This document shows positions 2,083 through 52,533 of a stretch of DNA of 64,000 bases, piece after piece. How positions within the stretch are numbered: position 1 is the first letter of the stretch; each line of letters opens with the position of its first letter. Where the stretch lies: the NCBI RefSeq assembly GCF_055900595.2, contig NZ_CM148325.1; one strand, given 5' to 3'. Both the position numbers and the translations under genes were made by a program. The notes beneath the pieces were generated by a model. The model was not told where the DNA came from. It did no database searches and worked only from the letters and a program-made list of their open reading frames with translations.

Positions 2083-2266
2083 AGTGGCTCATTCACCGAC
2101 TTATGTCAGCCCCTTCGGGACGTGCTACATAAAATTCGAATGACGCACAACAAGGTGCCTGCCGTCCAACTTCTGATATCAGCTTAGCTATATCAACCCT
2201 CGGGCGAAACGTCGAGTTAGGCACCGCCTTATTCCATAACAAAGCCGGGTTATTCCCGGCTTTGTT
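2083..2266 (+). ncRNA. glmY: GlmY small RNA
   Basis: Starts AGTGGCTCATTCACCGACTTATGTCAGCCCC, which matches GlmY from memory; about 184 nt; ends at hairpin agccggg/cccggct (2242-2260) plus T-rich tail; sits immediately upstream of glrK. Confidence 0.8.
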
Positions 2267-9202: not shown

Positions 9203-9306
9203 TTCATGCCGGATGCGGCGTGAACGCCTTATCCGGCCTACAAATTATTGCAAATTCAAGATATTGCAATCTCCGTGTAGGCCTGATAAGCGTAGCGCAT
9301 CAGGCA
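9203..9306. repeat. REP cluster (two inverted REP units) between glyA and yphH
   Basis: gccggatgcggcgtgaacgccttatccggcctac and gtaggcctgataagcgtagcgcatcaggc. Confidence 0.8.
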
Positions 9307-9365
9307 ATTTTTCGTTTGTGATCATCAAGGCTTCCTTAGGGAAGCCTTGTTACGTTATCGCGCCA

Positions 9366-19613: not shown

Positions 19614-19706
19614 AATGCCTGATGCGACGCTTGCCGCGTCTTATCAGGCCTACAATCGGTGTTGGAACGGTAGGCCGGATCTGGCGTTCACGCCGCATCC
19701 GGCATC
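19614..19706. repeat. REP cluster between yphB and yphA
   Basis: tgcctgatgcgacgcttgccgcgtcttatcaggcctaca and gtaggccggatctggcgttcacgccgcatccggca. Confidence 0.8.
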
Positions 19707-19710
19707 TTTC

Positions 19711-30897: not shown

Positions 30898-30903
30898 CCG
30901 AGG

Positions 30904-30992
30904 TTGCCTGATACGGCGCTTAACGCGTCTTGTCAGGCCTACATTGTACTGAACCCCTGGTCGGATAAAGTGTTTACGCCGCACCCGACAAC
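30904..30992. repeat. REP cluster between trmJ and iscR
   Basis: gcctgatacggcgcttaacgcgtcttgtcaggcctaca plus a partial second unit. Confidence 0.75.
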
Positions 30993-31664: not shown

Positions 31665-31800
31665 CCTGTTTCGTGTTGCATCTGCGTTGACTGTACATAC
31701 TCACTCCGGTCACTTACTTATGTAAGCTCCCGGAGATTCGTAAGTTTGTCAACTTGCTGAAACCCGAAACAGTTAGGTTAAAGATAACAAGATATTAGAA
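31665..31800. repeat. ERIC-like element inside the iscR-iscS intergenic region
   Basis: 31698-31741 tactcactccggtcacttacttatgtaagctcccggagattcg matches the conserved ERIC central inverted repeat; outer boundaries are approximate. Confidence 0.6.
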
Positions 31801-31895
31801 TCAGGCCGGGGCGTCTCGCGCTCCGTAAACACGGTCGTACATCCAGCCGGTAGCCTGGTTCCTTGCATTGAGTGATGTACGGAGTTTATAGAGCA

Positions 31896-40821: not shown

Positions 40822-43800
40822 ATGAAAAAGTTACGCGTAGCCGCCTGCATGCTAATGCTGGCGCTGGCAGGGTGCGACAACAACGATAACGCGCCAACAG
40901 CGGTGAAAAAAGATGCACCTTCTGAAGTTACTAAAGCGGCATCTTCAGAAAACGCGAGTTCAGCAAAACTCTCTGCACCGGAGCGACAAAAACTGGCACA
41001 ACAGAGTGCCGGTAAGGCGCTGACATTGCTGGATCTGTCTGAAGTCCAACTCGATGGCGCAGCCACGCTGGTGCTGACTTTCTCTATCCCTCTCGACCCG
41101 GATCAGGATTTCTCGCGCGTTATTCACGTCGTCGATAAAAAGAGCGGCAAAGTGGATGGTGCCTGGGAGTTGTCAGATAATCTTAAAGAGCTGCGTTTAC
41201 GCCACCTCGAGCCGAAACGTGATTTGATCGTTACTATTGGCAAGGAGGTCAAGGCACTCAACAACGCAACCTTCAGTAAAGATTACGAAAAAACTATAAC
41301 TACCCGCGATATCCAGCCGAGCGTCGGTTTTGCCAGCCGTGGTTCGCTGCTGCCTGGAAAAGTTATTGAAGGGCTGCCGGTAATGGCGCTCAATGTTAAC
41401 AATGTCGATGTTAACTTCTTCCGTGTTAAGCCAGAATCTCTGCCAGCATTTATTAGCCAATGGGAATACCGAAATTCGCTGGCGAACTGGCAGTCAGACA
41501 AACTGCTGCAAATGGCGGATCTGGTTTATACCGGACGTTTTGATCTCAATCCTGCGCGTAACACCCGTGAAAAATTATTGCTGCCGCTGGGTGATATCAA
41601 ACCGCTTCAGCAGGCGGGTGTGTATCTGGCTGTGATGAATCAGGCTGGACGTTACGATTACAGTAATCCCGCGACGCTGTTTACATTAAGTGATATCGGC
41701 GTATCGGCCCACCGTTATCACAATCGTCTGGATATCTTTACCCAAAGCCTGGGAAACGGCGCGGCCCAGCAAGGAGTTGAAGTCTCATTATTAAATGAGA
41801 AAGGGCAGACTCTGACTCAGGCAACCAGTGACGCCCAGGGGCATGTGCAGCTGGAAAATGATAAAAACGCGGCATTACTGTTGGCGCGTAAAGACGGTCA
41901 GACAACGCTACTCGATTTAAAACTTCCGGCGCTGGACTTAGCAGAATTTAACATTGCTGGCGCGCCAGGCTATAACAAACAGTTTTTCATGTTTGGCCCG
42001 CGCGATCTTTATCGCCCGGGTGAAACAGTCATCCTTAATGGTTTATTGCGTGATGCAGACGGTAAAGCGTTGCCCGATCAACCCATCAAGCTGGACGTAA
42101 TTAAACCCGACGGGCAGGTACTCAGGAGCGTCGTTAGTCAGCCGGAGAATGGCCTCTATCACTTTACCTGGCCACTCGATAGTAATGCGGCCACCGGCAT
42201 GTGGCATATCCGAGCCAACACGGGCGATAACCAGTATCGGATGTGGGATTTCCACGTCGAAGATTTTATGCCAGAGCGCATGGCGCTGAATCTGACCGGT
42301 GAGAAAACCCCGTTAACGCCGAAAGATGAAGTGAAATTCTCCGTGGTGGGTTACTACCTGTACGGGGCGCCTGCTAATGGTAATACTTTGCAAGGGCAAC
42401 TTTTCCTGCGCCCACTGCGTGAAGCTGTGTCAGCCTTACCTGGTTTCGAATTCGGCGATATAGCTGCTGAAAACCTTTCGCGCACGCTGGATGAAGTTCA
42501 GTTGACGCTGGATGATAAAGGGCGCGGCGAAGTTTCTACAGAAAGCCAGTGGAAGGAAACGCATTCCCCATTACAGGTTATTTTCCAGGGCAGTTTGCTG
42601 GAGTCTGGCGGTCGCCCGGTGACGCGCCGTGCTGAGCAGGCTATCTGGCCTGCCGATGCATTGCCGGGGATCCGTCCGCAATTCGCCTCGAAATCGGTTT
42701 ACGATTATCGCACTGACAGTACGGTAAAACAGCCCATTGTTGATGAAGGCAGTAACGCCGCTTTTGACATCGTTTATAGCGATGCACAGGGCGTCAAAAA
42801 AGCTGTGTCTGGCTTACAAGTGCGCCTGATTCGCGAACGCCGCGATTACTACTGGAACTGGTCAGAAGATGAAGGCTGGCAGTCACAGTTTGATCAAAAA
42901 GATCTGATCGAAAATGAACAAACACTGGATCTTCAGGCTGATGAAACCGGTAAAGTCAGTTTCCCGGTAGAGTGGGGCGCTTATCGTCTGGAAGTCAAAG
43001 CGCCGAATGAAGCGGTCAGTAGTGTGCGTTTCTGGGCTGGCTATAGCTGGCAGGACAATAGCGACGGTAGCGGTGCTGTGCGACCAGACCGTGTCACGCT
43101 GAAACTGGATAAAGCCAGTTATCGCCCTGGTGATACCATTAAGTTGCACATTGCCGCACCAACGGCGGGTAAAGGCTATGCGATGGTCGAGTCCAGTGAA
43201 GGGCCGCTGTGGTGGCAGGAGATTGATGTTCCGGCACAAGGGCTGGATCTGACGATTCCGGTCGATAAAACCTGGAATCGTCATGATCTTTATTTAAGTA
43301 CGCTGGTGGTACGTCCTGGCGATAAATCTCGCTCCGCGACGCCAAAACGCGCAGTTGGCGTGTTGCATTTGCCGCTTGGCGATGAAAACCGTCGTCTCGA
43401 TCTGGCGCTGGAAACTCCAGCGAAAATACGCCCCAATCAGCCATTAACCGTGAAAATTAAAGCCAGCAATAAAAATGGTGAGATGCCAAAACAGGTGAAT
43501 GTGCTGGTGTCTGCGGTTGATAGCGGTGTGCTGAATATTACTGATTATGTCACGCCAGATCCGTGGCAGGCATTCTTTGGTCAGAAACGCTATGGCGCAG
43601 ATATTTACGATATTTACGGTCAGGTTATTGAAGGTCAGGGGCGTCTGGCAGCTCTGCGTTTTGGTGGCGATGGTGATGAACTGAAACGCGGTGGTAAACC
43701 GCCAGTAAATCACGTCAATATTGTTGCGCAACAGGCGCTACCGGTAACACTCAACGAACAGGGCGAAGGCACGGTTACATTGCCGATTGGTGATTTTAAC

Positions 43801-45783
43801 GGTGAATTGCGCGTCATGGCACAAGCATGGACGGCAGATGATTTCGGTAGCAACGAAAGCAAAGTGGTTGTTGCCGCACCGGTGATAGCAGAACTGAATA
43901 TGCCGCGCTTTATGGCCAGCGGTGACACCTCACGTCTGACGCTGGATATCACTAATCTTACCGATAAACCGCAAAAACTGAACGTTGCTCTGACCGCCAG
44001 TGGCTTGCTTGAACTGGTTAGCGATTCACCCGCAGCCGTTGAATTAGCGCCGGGCGTGCGAACCACGCTGTTTATCCCGGTGCGAGCATTGCCGGGTTAT
44101 GGTGATGGTGAAATTCAGGCCACTATTAGCGGGTTAGCGTTACCGGGCGAAACCGTTGCCGATCAGCATAAGCAGTGGAAAATGGGTGTCCGTCCGGCAT
44201 TTCCGGCACAAACCGTCAATTACGGTACGGCGTTGCAGCCTGGTGAGACATGGGCGATTCCAGCTGATGGATTGCAAAACTTCTCGCCTGTTACGCTGGA
44301 AGGGCAATTGTTGTTGAGCGGCAAAGCACCGTTGAATATTGCACGTTATATCAAAGAGTTAAAAGCGTATCCGTACGGTTGTCTGGAGCAAACCGCCAGC
44401 GGCCTGTTCCCGTCACTTTACACCAACGCAGCCCAACTGCAGGCGTTGGGAATCAAAGGCGACAGTGATGAGAAGCGCCGTGCGGCAGTCGATATCGGCA
44501 TTTCTCGTTTACTGCAAATGCAACGTGATAACGGTGGCTTTGCGCTGTGGGATAAAAACGGTGATGAAGAGTACTGGCTGACGGCTTACGTGATGGATTT
44601 CCTGGTCCGCGCAGGTGAGCAGGGTTACAGCGTGCCGACAGAAGCCATTAACCGGGGGAATGAGCGTCTACTGCGCTATTTACAAGATCCGGGCATGATG
44701 TCGATTCCGTATGCGGATAATCTCAAAGCCAGTAAATTCGCCGTACAGTCTTACGCTGCGCTGGTGCTGGCCCGTCAGCAAAAGGCACCGCTGGGTGCGC
44801 TGCGTGAAATCTGGGAGCATCGTGCCGATGCTGCGTCTGGATTACCGCTGCTGCAACTTGGCGTTGCGCTGAAAACCATGGGCGATGCAACGCGTGGTGA
44901 AGAAGCGATTGTGCTGGCGCTGAAAACGCCGCGCAATAGTGATGAGCGGATATGGCTGGGTGATTACGGTAGTCCACTGCGCGACAACGCATTGATGCTC
45001 TCCTTGCTGGAAGAGAACAAATTGCTATCCGATGAGCAGTACCCTCTGCTGAACACACTTTCGCAGCAGGCGTTCGGTGAACGCTGGTTATCAACTCAGG
45101 AAAGTAACGCGCTGTTCCTGGCTGCCCGTACGATTCAGGATTTACCGGGCAAATGGCAGGCGCAAACGTCTTTCTCTGCTGAGCTGCTGACAGGTGAGAA
45201 AGCGCAAACCAGCAATCTGAATAGCGATCAACTTGCCACCTTACAGGTGACCAACAGTGGCGATCAGCCGTTATGGCTGCGTGTGGATGCCAGCGGTTAT
45301 CCGCAATCCGCCCCTTTACCGGCGAGCAATGTGCTGCAAATCGAGCGCCATATTCTTGGCACTGACGGTAAGAGCAAATCGCTGGATTCGTTACGTAGCG
45401 GCGATCTGGTACTGGTCTGGTTGCAGGTCAAAGCCAGTAACAGCGTGCCGGATGCTTTGGTCGTTGATTTACTGCCTGCTGGCCTGGAACTGGAAAACCA
45501 GAACCTGGCTAACGGCAGCGCCAGCCTGGAGCAAAGTGGTAGCGAAGTGCAAAACCTACTCAGTCAAATGCAACAAGCGAACATTAAGCATATTGAGTTT
45601 CGTGACGATCGCTTTGTGGCGGCGGTTGCCGTTGATGAATATCAACCAGTCACGCTGGTGTATCTGGCGCGGGCGGTAACGCCGGGAACATACAATGTTC
45701 CGCAACCAATGGTGGAATCGATGTATGTTCCCCACTGGCGGGCGACTGGCGCGGCTGAAGATCTGTTGATTGTCAGACCGTAA
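40822..45783 (+). CDS. yfhM: alpha-2-macroglobulin family lipoprotein
   Basis: 1653 aa; lipobox LALAGC; thioester motif CLEQ at about aa 1187. Confidence 0.93.
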   Translation: MKKLRVAACMLMLALAGCDNNDNAPTAVKKDAPSEVTKAASSENASSAKLSAPERQKLAQQSAGKALTLLDLSEVQLDGAATLVLTFSIPLDPDQDFSRVIHVVDKKSGKVDGAWELSDNLKELRLRHLEPKRDLIVTIGKEVKALNNATFSKDYEKTITTRDIQPSVGFASRGSLLPGKVIEGLPVMALNVNNVDVNFFRVKPESLPAFISQWEYRNSLANWQSDKLLQMADLVYTGRFDLNPARNTREKLLLPLGDIKPLQQAGVYLAVMNQAGRYDYSNPATLFTLSDIGVSAHRYHNRLDIFTQSLGNGAAQQGVEVSLLNEKGQTLTQATSDAQGHVQLENDKNAALLLARKDGQTTLLDLKLPALDLAEFNIAGAPGYNKQFFMFGPRDLYRPGETVILNGLLRDADGKALPDQPIKLDVIKPDGQVLRSVVSQPENGLYHFTWPLDSNAATGMWHIRANTGDNQYRMWDFHVEDFMPERMALNLTGEKTPLTPKDEVKFSVVGYYLYGAPANGNTLQGQLFLRPLREAVSALPGFEFGDIAAENLSRTLDEVQLTLDDKGRGEVSTESQWKETHSPLQVIFQGSLLESGGRPVTRRAEQAIWPADALPGIRPQFASKSVYDYRTDSTVKQPIVDEGSNAAFDIVYSDAQGVKKAVSGLQVRLIRERRDYYWNWSEDEGWQSQFDQKDLIENEQTLDLQADETGKVSFPVEWGAYRLEVKAPNEAVSSVRFWAGYSWQDNSDGSGAVRPDRVTLKLDKASYRPGDTIKLHIAAPTAGKGYAMVESSEGPLWWQEIDVPAQGLDLTIPVDKTWNRHDLYLSTLVVRPGDKSRSATPKRAVGVLHLPLGDENRRLDLALETPAKIRPNQPLTVKIKASNKNGEMPKQVNVLVSAVDSGVLNITDYVTPDPWQAFFGQKRYGADIYDIYGQVIEGQGRLAALRFGGDGDELKRGGKPPVNHVNIVAQQALPVTLNEQGEGTVTLPIGDFNGELRVMAQAWTADDFGSNESKVVVAAPVIAELNMPRFMASGDTSRLTLDITNLTDKPQKLNVALTASGLLELVSDSPAAVELAPGVRTTLFIPVRALPGYGDGEIQATISGLALPGETVADQHKQWKMGVRPAFPAQTVNYGTALQPGETWAIPADGLQNFSPVTLEGQLLLSGKAPLNIARYIKELKAYPYGCLEQTASGLFPSLYTNAAQLQALGIKGDSDEKRRAAVDIGISRLLQMQRDNGGFALWDKNGDEEYWLTAYVMDFLVRAGEQGYSVPTEAINRGNERLLRYLQDPGMMSIPYADNLKASKFAVQSYAALVLARQQKAPLGALREIWEHRADAASGLPLLQLGVALKTMGDATRGEEAIVLALKTPRNSDERIWLGDYGSPLRDNALMLSLLEENKLLSDEQYPLLNTLSQQAFGERWLSTQESNALFLAARTIQDLPGKWQAQTSFSAELLTGEKAQTSNLNSDQLATLQVTNSGDQPLWLRVDASGYPQSAPLPASNVLQIERHILGTDGKSKSLDSLRSGDLVLVWLQVKASNSVPDALVVDLLPAGLELENQNLANGSASLEQSGSEVQNLLSQMQQANIKHIEFRDDRFVAAVAVDEYQPVTLVYLARAVTPGTYNVPQPMVESMYVPHWRATGAAEDLLIVRP

Positions 45784-48096
45784 ATGCCTCGCCTGTTAAC
45801 CAAACGCGGCTGCTGGATAGCGCTGGCAGCTGCGCCTTTTCTCCTTTTTTTTGCCGCGTGGGGAGCAGATAAACTCTGGCCCCTGCCATTGCATGAAGTC
45901 AATCCCGCACGCGTAGTCGTGGCGCAGGATGGTACGCCACTCTGGCGTTTCGCCGATGCTGAGGGCATCTGGCGCTATCCGGTAACCATCGAAGATGTCT
46001 CTCCGCGTTACCTTGAAGCACTGATCAATTATGAAGATCGCTGGTTCTGGAAGCATCCGGGGGTGAATCCATTCTCGGTGGCGCGCGCAGCATGGCAAGA
46101 TCTCACTTCGGGACGGGTTATTTCCGGCGGCAGCACACTCACCATGCAGGTTGCTCGTCTGCTTGATCCTCACCCCAAAACTTTTGGCGGCAAAATTCGC
46201 CAGCTCTGGCGCGCGTTTCAACTGGAATGGCACTTGTCTAAACGTGACATTCTGACCTTGTATCTTAATCGCGCTCCGTTTGGTGGTACGTTGCAGGGGA
46301 TCGGTGCGGCAAGCTGGGCATATCTCGGAAAATCGCCTGCGAATTTAAGCTATTCCGAGGCGGCAATGCTGGCGGTGTTACCACAAGCGCCCAGCCGACT
46401 GCGTCCGGATCGCTGGCCGGAACGAGCCGAGGCCGCACGTAATAAAGTGCTCAATCGGATGGCTGCGCAAGGTGTGTGGTCCCGTGAGCAGGTAAAAGAA
46501 TCTAGTGAAGAGCCCATCTGGTTGGCACCCAGACAAATGCCGCAACTGGCACCGCTGTTTTCGCGCATGATGCTCGGTAAAAGCAAAAGCGACAAAATCG
46601 TTACTACGCTGGATGCTGGTTTACAGCGTCGTCTGGAAGAACTGGCGCAAAACTGGAAAGGACGATTGCCACCGCGCAGTTCGTTGGCAATGATCGTTGT
46701 TGATCATACTGATATGAGTGTGCGCGGCTGGGTAGGATCGGTTGATCTTAATGATGATTCCCGCTTTGGGCATGTCGATATGGTCAATGCGATCCGATCG
46801 CCGGGATCGGTACTCAAACCGTTTGTTTATGGTCTGGCGCTGGATGAAGGCTTGATCCACCCTGCATCGCTGTTGCAAGACGTTCCCCGGCGCACTGGTG
46901 ATTATCGACCAGGCAACTTTGACAGCGGTTTTCATGGCCCGATCAGCATGAGCGAGGCGCTGGTGCGCTCTCTGAATTTACCTGCTGTGCAGGTGCTGGA
47001 AGCCTATGGGCCGAAACGGTTTGCGGCAAAGTTACGCAATGTTGGATTGCCGTTATATCTGCCCAACGGCGCTGCACCGAATCTTTCGCTCATTCTCGGC
47101 GGCGCAGGTGCAAAACTGGAGGATATGGCTGCAGCGTATACCGCATTTGCTCGCCACGGTAAGGCGGGTAAGTTGCGCTTACAGCCGGGGGACCCATTAC
47201 TTGAGCGACCGTTAATGTCGCCGGGGGCCGCGTGGATTATCCGCCGTATTATGGCAGATGAAGCGCAGCCGCTTCCGGATGGCGCTTTGCCACGCGTCGT
47301 ACCACTGGCGTGGAAAACAGGAACCAGTTATGGCTATCGCGATGCATGGGCTATTGGCGTTAACGCTCGTTACGTAATTGGGATCTGGACTGGCAGACCG
47401 GACGGTACGCCCGTTGTCGGTCAGTTTGGCTTTGCCAGCGCCGTACCGCTGTTGAATCAGGTCAATAATATCTTACTGTCGCGCAGTGCGAATCTGCCGG
47501 AAGACCCGCGTCCTGATTCTGTAAGCCGTGGCGTTATCTGCTGGCCGGGTGGGCAATCATTGCCAGAAGGCGATAGCAATTGCCGCCGTCGTCTTGCCAC
47601 CTGGCTGCTCGAAGATAGCCAGCCACCAACATTACTTTTACCGGAGCAAGAAGGAATAAGTGGGATTCGTTTCCCCATCTGGCTTGATGAGCAAGGTAAA
47701 CGTGTTGCTGCTGATTGTCCTCAGGCTCGACAAGAAATGATTAATGTCTGGCCATTACCACTTGAACCCTGGCTACCTGCTGCTGAACGACGAGTAGCGC
47801 GCTTACCTGGAGCATCAACAAATTGCCCGCCCTATGGTCGCGATGCTCAGGTACCTTTACAGTTGATTGGTGTGCGTGATGGCGTAATTATCAAACGTCT
47901 GCCAGGAGCTACTGATGCGTCATTACCAGTACAATTAAGCGGAGGAACAGGCGAACGCTGGTGGTTTCTTAATGGTGAACCGTTAGCTGAACGCGGGCGT
48001 AACGTGACTCTGCATTTGACAGAGAAAGGCGATTATCAATTGCTGGTAATGGACGAAATGGGGCAGGTGGCGACAGTGAGATTTGTCATGCAGTAG
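45784..48096 (+). CDS. pbpC: penicillin-binding protein 1C (transglycosylase/transpeptidase)
   Basis: 770 aa; start codon immediately follows the yfhM stop; glycosyltransferase motif EDRWFWKHPG; SxxK motif SVLK. Confidence 0.93.
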   Translation: MPRLLTKRGCWIALAAAPFLLFFAAWGADKLWPLPLHEVNPARVVVAQDGTPLWRFADAEGIWRYPVTIEDVSPRYLEALINYEDRWFWKHPGVNPFSVARAAWQDLTSGRVISGGSTLTMQVARLLDPHPKTFGGKIRQLWRAFQLEWHLSKRDILTLYLNRAPFGGTLQGIGAASWAYLGKSPANLSYSEAAMLAVLPQAPSRLRPDRWPERAEAARNKVLNRMAAQGVWSREQVKESSEEPIWLAPRQMPQLAPLFSRMMLGKSKSDKIVTTLDAGLQRRLEELAQNWKGRLPPRSSLAMIVVDHTDMSVRGWVGSVDLNDDSRFGHVDMVNAIRSPGSVLKPFVYGLALDEGLIHPASLLQDVPRRTGDYRPGNFDSGFHGPISMSEALVRSLNLPAVQVLEAYGPKRFAAKLRNVGLPLYLPNGAAPNLSLILGGAGAKLEDMAAAYTAFARHGKAGKLRLQPGDPLLERPLMSPGAAWIIRRIMADEAQPLPDGALPRVVPLAWKTGTSYGYRDAWAIGVNARYVIGIWTGRPDGTPVVGQFGFASAVPLLNQVNNILLSRSANLPEDPRPDSVSRGVICWPGGQSLPEGDSNCRRRLATWLLEDSQPPTLLLPEQEGISGIRFPIWLDEQGKRVAADCPQARQEMINVWPLPLEPWLPAAERRVARLPGASTNCPPYGRDAQVPLQLIGVRDGVIIKRLPGATDASLPVQLSGGTGERWWFLNGEPLAERGRNVTLHLTEKGDYQLLVMDEMGQVATVRFVMQ

Positions 48097-48244
48097 TCTG
48101 TTTTGCTCATATTTGTTGCTTAAACTCGTTTTATTTTAAAAAAATGTTACCTTCATCAATAGTCAACGGCCCTGTTGCTCATTATAATCCGCGCCATCTC
48201 GTACGCTGGTACAGACAACAACAGAATAATTTACAGAGGTAAAA

Positions 48245-51304: not shown

Positions 51305-52423
51305 ATGCATAACCAGGCTCCAATTCAACGTAGAAAATCAACACGTATTTACGTTGGGAATGTGCCGATTGGCGATGGTGCCCCCATCGCCGTACAGTCC
51401 ATGACCAATACGCGTACGACAGACGTCGAAGCTACGGTCAATCAAATTAAGGCGCTGGAACGTGTTGGCGCTGATATCGTCCGTGTCTCCGTACCGACGA
51501 TGGACGCGGCAGAAGCGTTCAAGCTCATCAAACAACAGGTTAACGTACCGCTGGTGGCTGATATCCACTTTGACTATCGCATTGCGCTGAAAGTAGCGGA
51601 ATACGGGGTCGATTGTTTGCGTATTAACCCTGGCAATATCGGTAATGAAGAGCGTATTCGCATGGTGGTTGACTGCGCGCGCGATAAAAACATTCCGATC
51701 CGTATTGGCGTTAACGCTGGATCGCTGGAAAAAGATCTGCAAGAAAAGTATGGCGAACCGACGCCGCAGGCGTTGCTGGAATCTGCCATGCGTCATGTTG
51801 ATCATCTCGATCGCCTGAACTTCGATCAGTTCAAAGTCAGCGTGAAAGCGTCTGACGTCTTCCTCGCTGTTGAGTCTTATCGTTTGCTGGCAAAACAGAT
51901 CGATCAACCGCTGCATCTTGGGATCACCGAAGCGGGCGGCGCACGTAGTGGGGCAGTAAAATCTGCCATTGGTTTAGGCCTGCTGCTGTCTGAAGGCATC
52001 GGCGACACGCTGCGCGTATCGCTGGCGGCCGATCCGGTCGAAGAGATCAAAGTCGGTTTCGATATTTTGAAATCGCTGCGTATCCGTTCGCGCGGGATCA
52101 ACTTCATCGCCTGCCCGACCTGTTCGCGTCAGGAGTTTGACGTTATCGGTACGGTTAACGCCCTGGAGCAACGCCTGGAAGATATCATCACTCCGATGGA
52201 CGTTTCGATTATCGGCTGCGTGGTGAATGGACCAGGTGAGGCGCTGGTTTCTACACTCGGCGTCACCGGCGGCAACAAGAAAAGCGGCCTCTATGAAGAT
52301 GGCGTGCGCAAAGACCGTCTGGACAACAACGATATGATCGACCAGCTGGAAGCGCGCATTCGTGCGAAAGCCAGCCAACTGGATGAAGCGCGTCGAATTG
52401 ACATTCAGCAGGTTGAAAAATAA
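51305..52423 (+). CDS. ispG: 4-hydroxy-3-methylbut-2-enyl diphosphate synthase (flavodoxin)
   Basis: 372 aa; C-terminal [4Fe-4S] Cys motif CPTCSR...C. Confidence 0.95.
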
Positions 52424-52533
52424 TAACGTGATGGGAAGCGCCTCGCTTCCCGTGTATGATTGAACCCGCATGGCTCCCGAAATATTGAGGGGCGCGTTGA
52501 GGGTTCATTTTTATATTCAGAAAGAGAATAAAC

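Follow-up and report, generated by a model that had tools for sequence, protein, structure and literature searches.

The yfhM-pbpC gene pair

The gene pair yfhM-pbpC is located in a 64,000-nucleotide stretch of contig NZ_CM148325.1 (NCBI RefSeq assembly GCF_055900595.2), and this whole stretch is called the window in this work. yfhM (40822..45783, 1653 amino acids, ATG start, TAA stop) encodes the alpha-2-macroglobulin (A2M) lipoprotein YfhM, known as ECAM in Escherichia coli, and pbpC (45784..48096, 770 amino acids, ATG start) encodes penicillin-binding protein 1C (PbpC, PBP1C). Both open reading frames are on the plus strand. The junction TAA-ATG (45781..45786, plus strand) has the context AGACCG-TAA-ATG-CCT, so that the yfhM stop codon ends at 45783 and the A of the pbpC start codon is 45784. 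The list of open reading frames agrees with these letters, and the zero-nucleotide gap claimed in an earlier sequence-only reading of this DNA is correct. That reading also called the two genes fused, which is the wrong term, as they are two separate cistrons.

With high confidence, the two genes are orthologous to yfhM and pbpC of E. coli K-12 and come from a divergent lineage of Escherichia. In strain MG1655, yfhM (2647326-2652287) and pbpC (2645013-2647325) match those of the window in length, and the gap between them is zero as well. The flanks are also as in K-12, with sseA upstream on the opposite strand and ndk, rlmN and rodZ downstream. YfhM is 97.9% and PbpC 94.4% identical to the K-12 proteins, both without insertions or deletions. 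The ratios of nonsynonymous to synonymous divergence (dN/dS) against K-12 are 0.037 for yfhM and 0.055 for pbpC, indicating strong purifying selection on both genes. Both are full length and collinear with K-12, so the pair is intact, as had been claimed.

The window aligns to K-12 positions 2635598-2693403 with 94–97% identity (about 95% over 57.5 kb). The 7.7-kb yfhM-pbpC locus is found in 5,423 of the 5,426 RefSeq complete genomes filed as E. coli, and in just 18 of the 5,426 it is at least 99% identical to the window. The identity of about 95% to K-12 and the small number of close matches point to a divergent Escherichia lineage, which is filed under E. coli and is possibly a cryptic clade. 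The gene pair is already known and the locus is an ordinary one; its value is that of an intact, correctly read example from such a lineage. The sole new detail is a conserved RNA hairpin inside pbpC.

Domains and motifs of YfhM and PbpC

YfhM matches 11 Pfam models above their curated cut-offs, in the order expected of a bacterial alpha-2-macroglobulin (bMG1, A2M_bMG2, bMG3, MG2, bMG5, bMG6, A2M_BRD, A2M, TED_complement, CUB_A2MG and bMG10). The E. coli YfhM structures PDB 4rtd, 4ziq and 5a42 are matched over the full length (E = 0, 3586–3620 bits), and residue-level alignment with 4rtd, which is E. coli ECAM, gives about 98% identity. These matches establish YfhM as a thioester-type A2M lipoprotein, in line with the earlier identification.

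The lipoprotein signal peptide with the lipobox LAGC (40822..40875, plus strand) was read directly and is the same in K-12. The N-terminus is MKKLRVAACMLMLALAGC followed by DNN, in which the lipobox is formed by L15-A-G-C18, Cys18 is encoded at 40873-40875 and aspartate is at position +2; the lipobox was assigned by visual comparison with the L-[AS]-[GA]-C rule. A lipobox cysteine followed by aspartate was found in 42 related loci. Aspartate at +2 of E. coli lipoproteins is an inner-membrane retention signal in Lol sorting. From these residues, YfhM should be tethered through Cys18 at the periplasmic face of the inner membrane. ECAM is described as a protease trap that contains a thioester and has both a signal peptide and a lipoprotein box (PMC3328433).

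The functional elements of the trap are in place. The thioester motif CLEQ (Cys1187 to Gln1190, 44380..44391, plus strand, context YPYGCLEQTASG) keeps the ECAM numbering (PMC4498604) in the alignment with K-12, and the TED_complement match of the Pfam hidden Markov model search (residues 1174-1284) encloses it. The lipobox and the CLEQ motif that had been claimed for yfhM are thus both present. The YPYG that precedes CLEQ contains the thioester-pocket residues Tyr1183 and Tyr1185, and RDDR at 1594 and ESMY (ExMY) at 1632 match K-12. These tyrosines and the RDDR and ExMY motifs shield the ECAM thioester and drive its activation (PMC4498604). The bait region core, the target of protease cleavage (residues 923-942 in the numbering of the ECAM structure, 43588..43647, plus strand), corresponds to Arg923-Leu942, the disordered bait segment in the structure of cleaved ECAM (PMC4498604). 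Over residues 915-975, V969A is the only difference from K-12. K-12 ECAM is known to form the thioester and to trap proteases covalently (Doan & Gettins 2008, as cited in PMC4498604 and PMC3328433). By analogy with these nearly identical published proteins, a protease that enters the periplasm would cut the bait, ECAM would snap shut and the exposed thioester would bind the protease covalently.

PbpC scores 1548.3 bits against the NCBIfam equivalog model NF008414 (cut-off 1121) and 902 bits against TIGR02073 (cut-off 494), and it stays under the cut-offs of the PBP1A and PBP1B models, which confirms its identity as PBP1C. The Pfam Transgly domain covers residues 60-226 (174.8 bits), with the EDxxF motif as EDRWF at E84. 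The Transpeptidase domain covers residues 305-520, with SVLK at S342, SLN at S396 and KTG at 511. The BiPBP_C domain, a C-terminal domain specific to PBP1C, covers residues 687-767 (61.3 bits, cut-off 26.8). By its sequence, PbpC belongs to the class A penicillin-binding proteins and combines a membrane anchor at the N-terminus with glycosyltransferase and transpeptidase domains and the PBP1C-specific C-terminal domain.

The 3' end of pbpC is more divergent than the rest of the gene. The last 600 nt or so (47500-48096, about codons 570-770) are 79% identical to K-12 and 76–81% identical to every other Escherichia compared, whereas these are 80–95% identical among themselves. Synonymous divergence (dS) is 1.4 in this part versus 0.3–0.5 in the remainder of the gene, while dN/dS is unchanged at 0.05. 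Among the complete E. coli genomes, 11 match this part at 99% or more, 7 at 95–99% and about 5,405 at 80–90%. Fast evolution of the pbpC 3' end in every Escherichia was ruled out, as the lineage of the window alone is outlying. The C-terminal domain looks like a divergent, possibly imported, allele.

Conservation of the gene pairing and the gap

PbpC was used as query against one genome per bacterial species, which gave 80 loci. The upstream sequence was long enough in 79 of them, and in 76 of these 79 loci a macroglobulin gene on the same strand ends shortly before pbpC. The CxEQ motif is present in 75 of the 76 macroglobulins (CLEQ in 51 loci, 50 from Enterobacterales and one from Alteromonadales, and CAEQ in 24 Xanthomonadales-like loci). 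The exception is Citrobacter amalonaticus AUH_CA_2023_1 (L031), in which only a 243-codon open reading frame without CxEQ reaches the stop; the macroglobulin frame is interrupted there, either in a pseudogene or by a frameshift of the draft assembly. Two assemblies, named Chryseobacterium sp. 18061 (L016) and Bacillus subtilis SK7B5 (L075), carry loci typical of Enterobacteriaceae and Xanthomonadaceae, respectively, and are probably contaminated or mislabelled.

In 51 Enterobacterales species, the gap between the two genes is 0 nt in 26, 1 nt in 6, 3 nt in 6 and 6–13 nt in 13. The 26 zero-gap species belong to Escherichia, Citrobacter, Salmonella and Raoultella. Chance does not explain the zero gap, which K-12 and these 26 species share, and none of the 51 has a gap above 13 nt. 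Xanthomonadales have an apparent spacer of typically 50–600 nt, and of about 2.3 kb in two loci; the pbpC starts are uncertain there, and some loci have possible pbpC starts near the macroglobulin stop. Spacers of this size weigh against tight coupling as a universal property of the pair. The spread of the pairing and of the gap sizes across the surveyed loci indicates that the linkage is ancient, that the tight junction is a family-level trait and that a gap of exactly zero is particular to one sub-group.

Transcription and probable translational coupling

A sigma-70-like promoter of yfhM (ATTACA-17-CATAAT, 40749..40777, plus strand) was found by consensus scan and is the same in K-12, with an implied start at about 40784. 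In K-12, a SEnd-seq-based operon table places an operon boundary at 2652325, 38 nt upstream of the yfhM ATG (PMC10667835). This position corresponds to 40784 of the window, 7 nt past the -10 hexamer, and agrees with the promoter scan. The same source groups yfhM, pbpC, ndk and rlmN into one complex operon (PMC10667835 Table S7), with three termination sites inside the four-gene unit. Judging from the sequence and from K-12, both genes would be transcribed from this promoter, about 40 nt upstream of yfhM, and the K-12 transcription unit would continue into ndk and rlmN. No terminator-like site was found between pbpC and ndk in the terminator scan. The pbpC-ndk spacer contains a promoter-like site for ndk (TAGTCA-17-TATAAT, 48160..48188, plus strand, consensus scan). 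The zero gap between yfhM and pbpC leaves no room for a terminator or a promoter, yet a terminator-like hairpin lies 21 nt into pbpC.

The 20 nt upstream of pbpC pair poorly with the anti-Shine-Dalgarno sequence (+0.4 kcal/mol, versus -6.0 for yfhM, -7.1 for ndk and -7.4 for ispG), a value within the weakest 13% of 2,000 random positions of the window. No strong Shine-Dalgarno sequence precedes pbpC in any of the 51 Enterobacterales species with gaps of 0–13 nt. A start codon that directly follows a stop codon and has no ribosome-binding site is the classical setting of termination-reinitiation. With no Shine-Dalgarno sequence of its own and its start codon directly behind the yfhM stop, pbpC most likely relies for its translation on ribosomes that have only just terminated on yfhM. 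Translational coupling of the two genes is thus plausible. Contrary to what had been stated, it is not directly visible, and is inferred from the geometry of the junction and the missing Shine-Dalgarno sequence.

A conserved RNA hairpin inside pbpC

The terminator scan identified a GC-rich RNA hairpin at 45805..45834 (plus strand), which begins 21 nt past the yfhM stop and occupies pbpC codons 8-17. It has 12 base pairs, a 6-nt loop and a folding energy of -20.1 kcal/mol, with the letters CGCGGCTGCTGG-ATAGCG-CTGGCAGCTGCG, and is followed by CCTTTTCTCCTTTTTTTT. The U-rich tract after the hairpin (CCUUUUCUCCUUUUUUUU, 45835..45852, plus strand) also encodes the residues PFLLFF of the membrane anchor; hairpin and tract together span pbpC codons 8-23. 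Folds as strong as this one occur in only 5 of 21,324 sampled 30-nt windows of the plus strand.

Covariation was analysed in 18 species of Escherichia, Citrobacter, Salmonella, Raoultella, Kluyvera and relatives, with a consensus stem of 11 pairs. Across the alignment, 97% of the cells are paired, and changes on both sides are found in 7 of the 11 pairs. None of 500 shuffles equalled the observed pairing, the number of double-change cells or the covariation score, and only 1–2 of 500 equalled the remaining two measures. When the partner column was slid by 1–3 positions, pairing dropped to 22–65%. Many of the pairs are G-U, so the hairpin exists only in the RNA of the sense strand. With a covariance model made from 16 sequences, the orthologous site was recovered in the genera with a gap of 0 or 1 nt and in Franconibacter and Pantoea, with no other match below E = 0.07 in 1.1 Mb. 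At the gathering threshold, no Rfam family is present in the hairpin region, and a permissive scan of 45600-46000 gave only chance-level matches (E > 3).

Two further structures were considered. A larger structure around the junction, in which a single-sequence fold paired the yfhM 3' end with pbpC codons 22-26, is not conserved and was dropped by RNAalifold on the 18 species. An alternative upstream helix proposed by RNAalifold on the same species has nearly no covariation.

The hairpin could also be a by-product of the protein sequence, in which an Arg/Trp-rich tail is followed by an Ala/Leu-rich membrane helix and the codons happen to be complementary. Arginine (CGN) and alanine (GCN) codons are indeed complementary, and synonymous shuffles still fold fairly well, with means of -10 to -17 kcal/mol. 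In 23 of 27 lineages, however, the native fold is better than its own synonymous-codon shuffles (z ≤ -1.8). The residues that the two arms encode also change jointly with pairing kept, G-C going with A-A, P-V with A-G and S-R with G-F. Moreover, equivalent hairpins are found in non-coding DNA, since Xanthomonadales often have a strong hairpin in the spacer, a few nucleotides past the macroglobulin stop. These observations make an accident of protein sequence very unlikely.

The position of the hairpin is also conserved where its sequence is not orthologous. Buttiauxella, Cedecea and Mangrovibacter have different hairpins that are equally placed. An unusually strong hairpin, defined by an empirical p ≤ 0.05 against random windows of the same locus, lies in the 84 nt past the macroglobulin stop in 81% of 52 Enterobacterales and in 60% of 25 other loci, while 5% is expected. 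Because this placement is kept in both coding and spacer contexts, the hairpin tracks the end of the macroglobulin cistron and not the start of pbpC. The spacer may have collapsed to zero in Enterobacterales, by which the hairpin would have been absorbed into pbpC codons 8-17, while in Xanthomonadales it would have stayed in the spacer. Selection on base pairing would then dictate which amino acids are allowed at the N-terminus of PBP1C.

Possible function of the hairpin

The hairpin right after the junction suggests that the expression of yfhM and pbpC may be deliberately unequal. It probably punctuates the transcript 21 nt past the yfhM stop. Stable stem-loops between operon genes raise the expression of the upstream gene (PMC10667835). 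In a similar way, the hairpin may block 3' exonucleases after cleavage in the U-rich stretch, and would thus stabilise the yfhM part of the message. Alternatively, it may act as a weak, leaky attenuator that reinitiating ribosomes can melt. In either role, more macroglobulin than synthase would be made.

One explanation of unequal expression is that the hairpin and the U-rich tract form an internal terminator or attenuator, so that most transcripts end after yfhM and pbpC is expressed by read-through. If this were true, equal and coupled output could not be read from the zero gap. A simple terminator scan does flag 45805-45834 and the tail, the stem is followed by a run of 6–8 T in several genera, and the hairpin is conserved and selected, with its counterparts past the macroglobulin stop far above expectation in Enterobacterales as well as in Xanthomonadales and others. 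The three termination sites of the K-12 operon table also fit. The tail itself argues the other way. The U-tract scores are -2.6 in the window and -2.1 in K-12, with Escherichia tails between these values, versus -5.0 for the ndk terminator. In most lineages the scores are no better than those of synonymous shuffles, and they are mostly explained by the hydrophobic residues that the tract encodes. A classical intrinsic terminator at the hairpin was rejected on these grounds, and an efficient one is unlikely. No 3' end is recorded at the site in the accessible parts of the published data sets searched. Internal termination of most transcripts is thus possible but rather doubtful.

We favour, by analogy, a barrier to 3' exonucleases over a leaky attenuator. 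Put in general terms, we tentatively propose, with somewhat less than even confidence, that the hairpin is an undescribed cis-acting RNA of the 3' end of the macroglobulin cistron, and that it sets a high ratio of ECAM to PBP1C through an exonuclease block or through partial termination that ribosomes can override. Several points weigh against this proposal. The U-tract behind the hairpin is weak. The accessible portions of the 3'-end and processing data of Adams 2021, TERMITe, TRS and SMRT-Cappable-seq contain no entries for pbpC or yfhM, and the available part of PMC10667835 lists no RNA site at K-12 26471xx-26473xx. The missing RNA ends are a weak negative, because expression of the operon may be low in laboratory culture.

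If functional, the hairpin would explain how unequal protein amounts can arise from a zero-gap gene pair. It would further provide a clear example of a protein whose N-terminal sequence is constrained by RNA structure, and a concrete handle on the expression of PBP1C.

Proposed functional partnership of ECAM and PBP1C

The sequence-only reading presented the pair as a known periplasmic defence-and-repair module. The pairing is as published, and the idea itself has been named in the literature (PMC4498604, PMC3328433, PMC7554673). As an established role it does not stand, since it is a hypothesis of Budd et al. 2004, who proposed that ECAM inhibits invading proteases and PBP1C repairs the wall (as cited in PMC4498604 and PMC3328433). 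Under this hypothesis, PBP1C would carry out wall repair while ECAM neutralises proteases. Later papers treat joint protection of the cell envelope by the two proteins as a suggestion (PMC4498604, PMC3328433, PMC7554673, PMC6131605). The linkage of thioester macroglobulins to pbpC is as this hypothesis expects, with 76 of 79 loci paired and CxEQ in 75 of the 76. The repair half is tentative, because PBP1C cannot replace PBP1A or PBP1B (PMC7554673) and, as of 2018–2020, had no established physiological role (PMC7554673, PMC6131605).

The adjacency of the two genes might instead be historical, with ECAM acting as a lone protease trap and PBP1C being an unrelated minor synthase on a shared transcript. 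No phenotype links yfhM and pbpC, and under laboratory conditions no role of PBP1C is known (PMC7554673). Its first reported phenotype was seen only on overproduction together with LdtD, not with ECAM (PMC6131605). In contrast, the order of macroglobulin and then pbpC is kept in the 76 paired loci across Enterobacterales, Xanthomonadales and an Alteromonadales genome, although the macroglobulins are only about 35% identical. Selection for the linkage is hard to avoid when gene order is kept at such divergence, and a merely historical adjacency is improbable.

Other features of the window

Four known RNA elements on the window pass the Rfam gathering threshold and are as in K-12. These are GlmY (2083-2230, plus strand), the iscRS stability element (31785-31894, plus strand), ryfA (39270-39574, minus strand), which carries the small toxin gene timP in the matching genome, and sroE (52423-52514, plus strand). 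Short repeats at 9206-9309, 19616-19708, 30903-30990 and 38345-38462 match several K-12 intergenic sites with 81–100% identity. They behave like REP-type repeats, and at 9208 one of them coincides with a very strong local fold.

The end of the window (57505-64000) is not matched by anything in the 68 kb of K-12 compared; xseA follows yfgJ there. It contains an inverse autotransporter of 730 amino acids (57695-59887, Pfam IAT_beta 353 bits) and a 332-amino-acid protein (59937-60935). This part may resemble the Salmonella CS54 / E. coli sinH-sinI-ratA island. A perfect 13-bp hairpin (TATCTCTGGAGC...GCTCCAGAGATA, 57748-57785) is located in the region that encodes the signal peptide of the inverse autotransporter. 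It is among the strongest folds of the window, and is the second strong hairpin found early in a gene for an envelope protein.

Comparison with known systems

The closest known relative of the window YfhM is K-12 YfhM/ECAM (b2520; PDB 4ZIQ, 5A42, 4RTD). The two proteins share the length of 1653 amino acids, the lipobox, the bait region, CLEQ at 1187-1190, the pocket residues and the genomic position between sseA and pbpC. They differ by 34 substitutions, which are denser towards the C-terminus (CUB, MG10) and hit no known functional motif. PbpC likewise shares with K-12 PBP1C (b2519; Schiffer & Holtje 1999, as cited in PMC3328433) the length of 770 amino acids, the domain order, the catalytic motifs, the zero-nucleotide junction with yfhM and ndk downstream. 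It differs in its 94.4% identity and in the divergent 3' end.

Sa-A2M of Salmonella enterica (PDB 4U48; Wong & Dessen 2014, as cited in PMC4498604) is of the same family and architecture, with a full-length match of 3036 bits and about 82% identity to YfhM. The pbpC ATG of the Salmonella loci likewise comes right after the macroglobulin stop; the letters of the junction and of the hairpin differ, but the pairing is kept. Class 2 macroglobulins, such as MagD of P. aeruginosa and the second E. coli A2M, are also large periplasmic proteins with multiple MG domains and belong to the same superfamily (PMC3735191, PMC5764988, PMC3328433). In many species, however, they have no CxEQ, and their genes are in an operon with four other lipoprotein genes and not with pbpC (PMC3328433). 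The window YfhM is of the thioester, pbpC-linked class, unlike class 2.

For the hairpin, the nearest likeness is to the stem-loops of selective RNA processing and stabilisation (PMC10667835), in which a stable hairpin right after the first cistron is also followed by a U-rich single-stranded stretch. The hairpin of the window differs from these in that the zero spacer between yfhM and pbpC places it within the coding sequence of the second gene.

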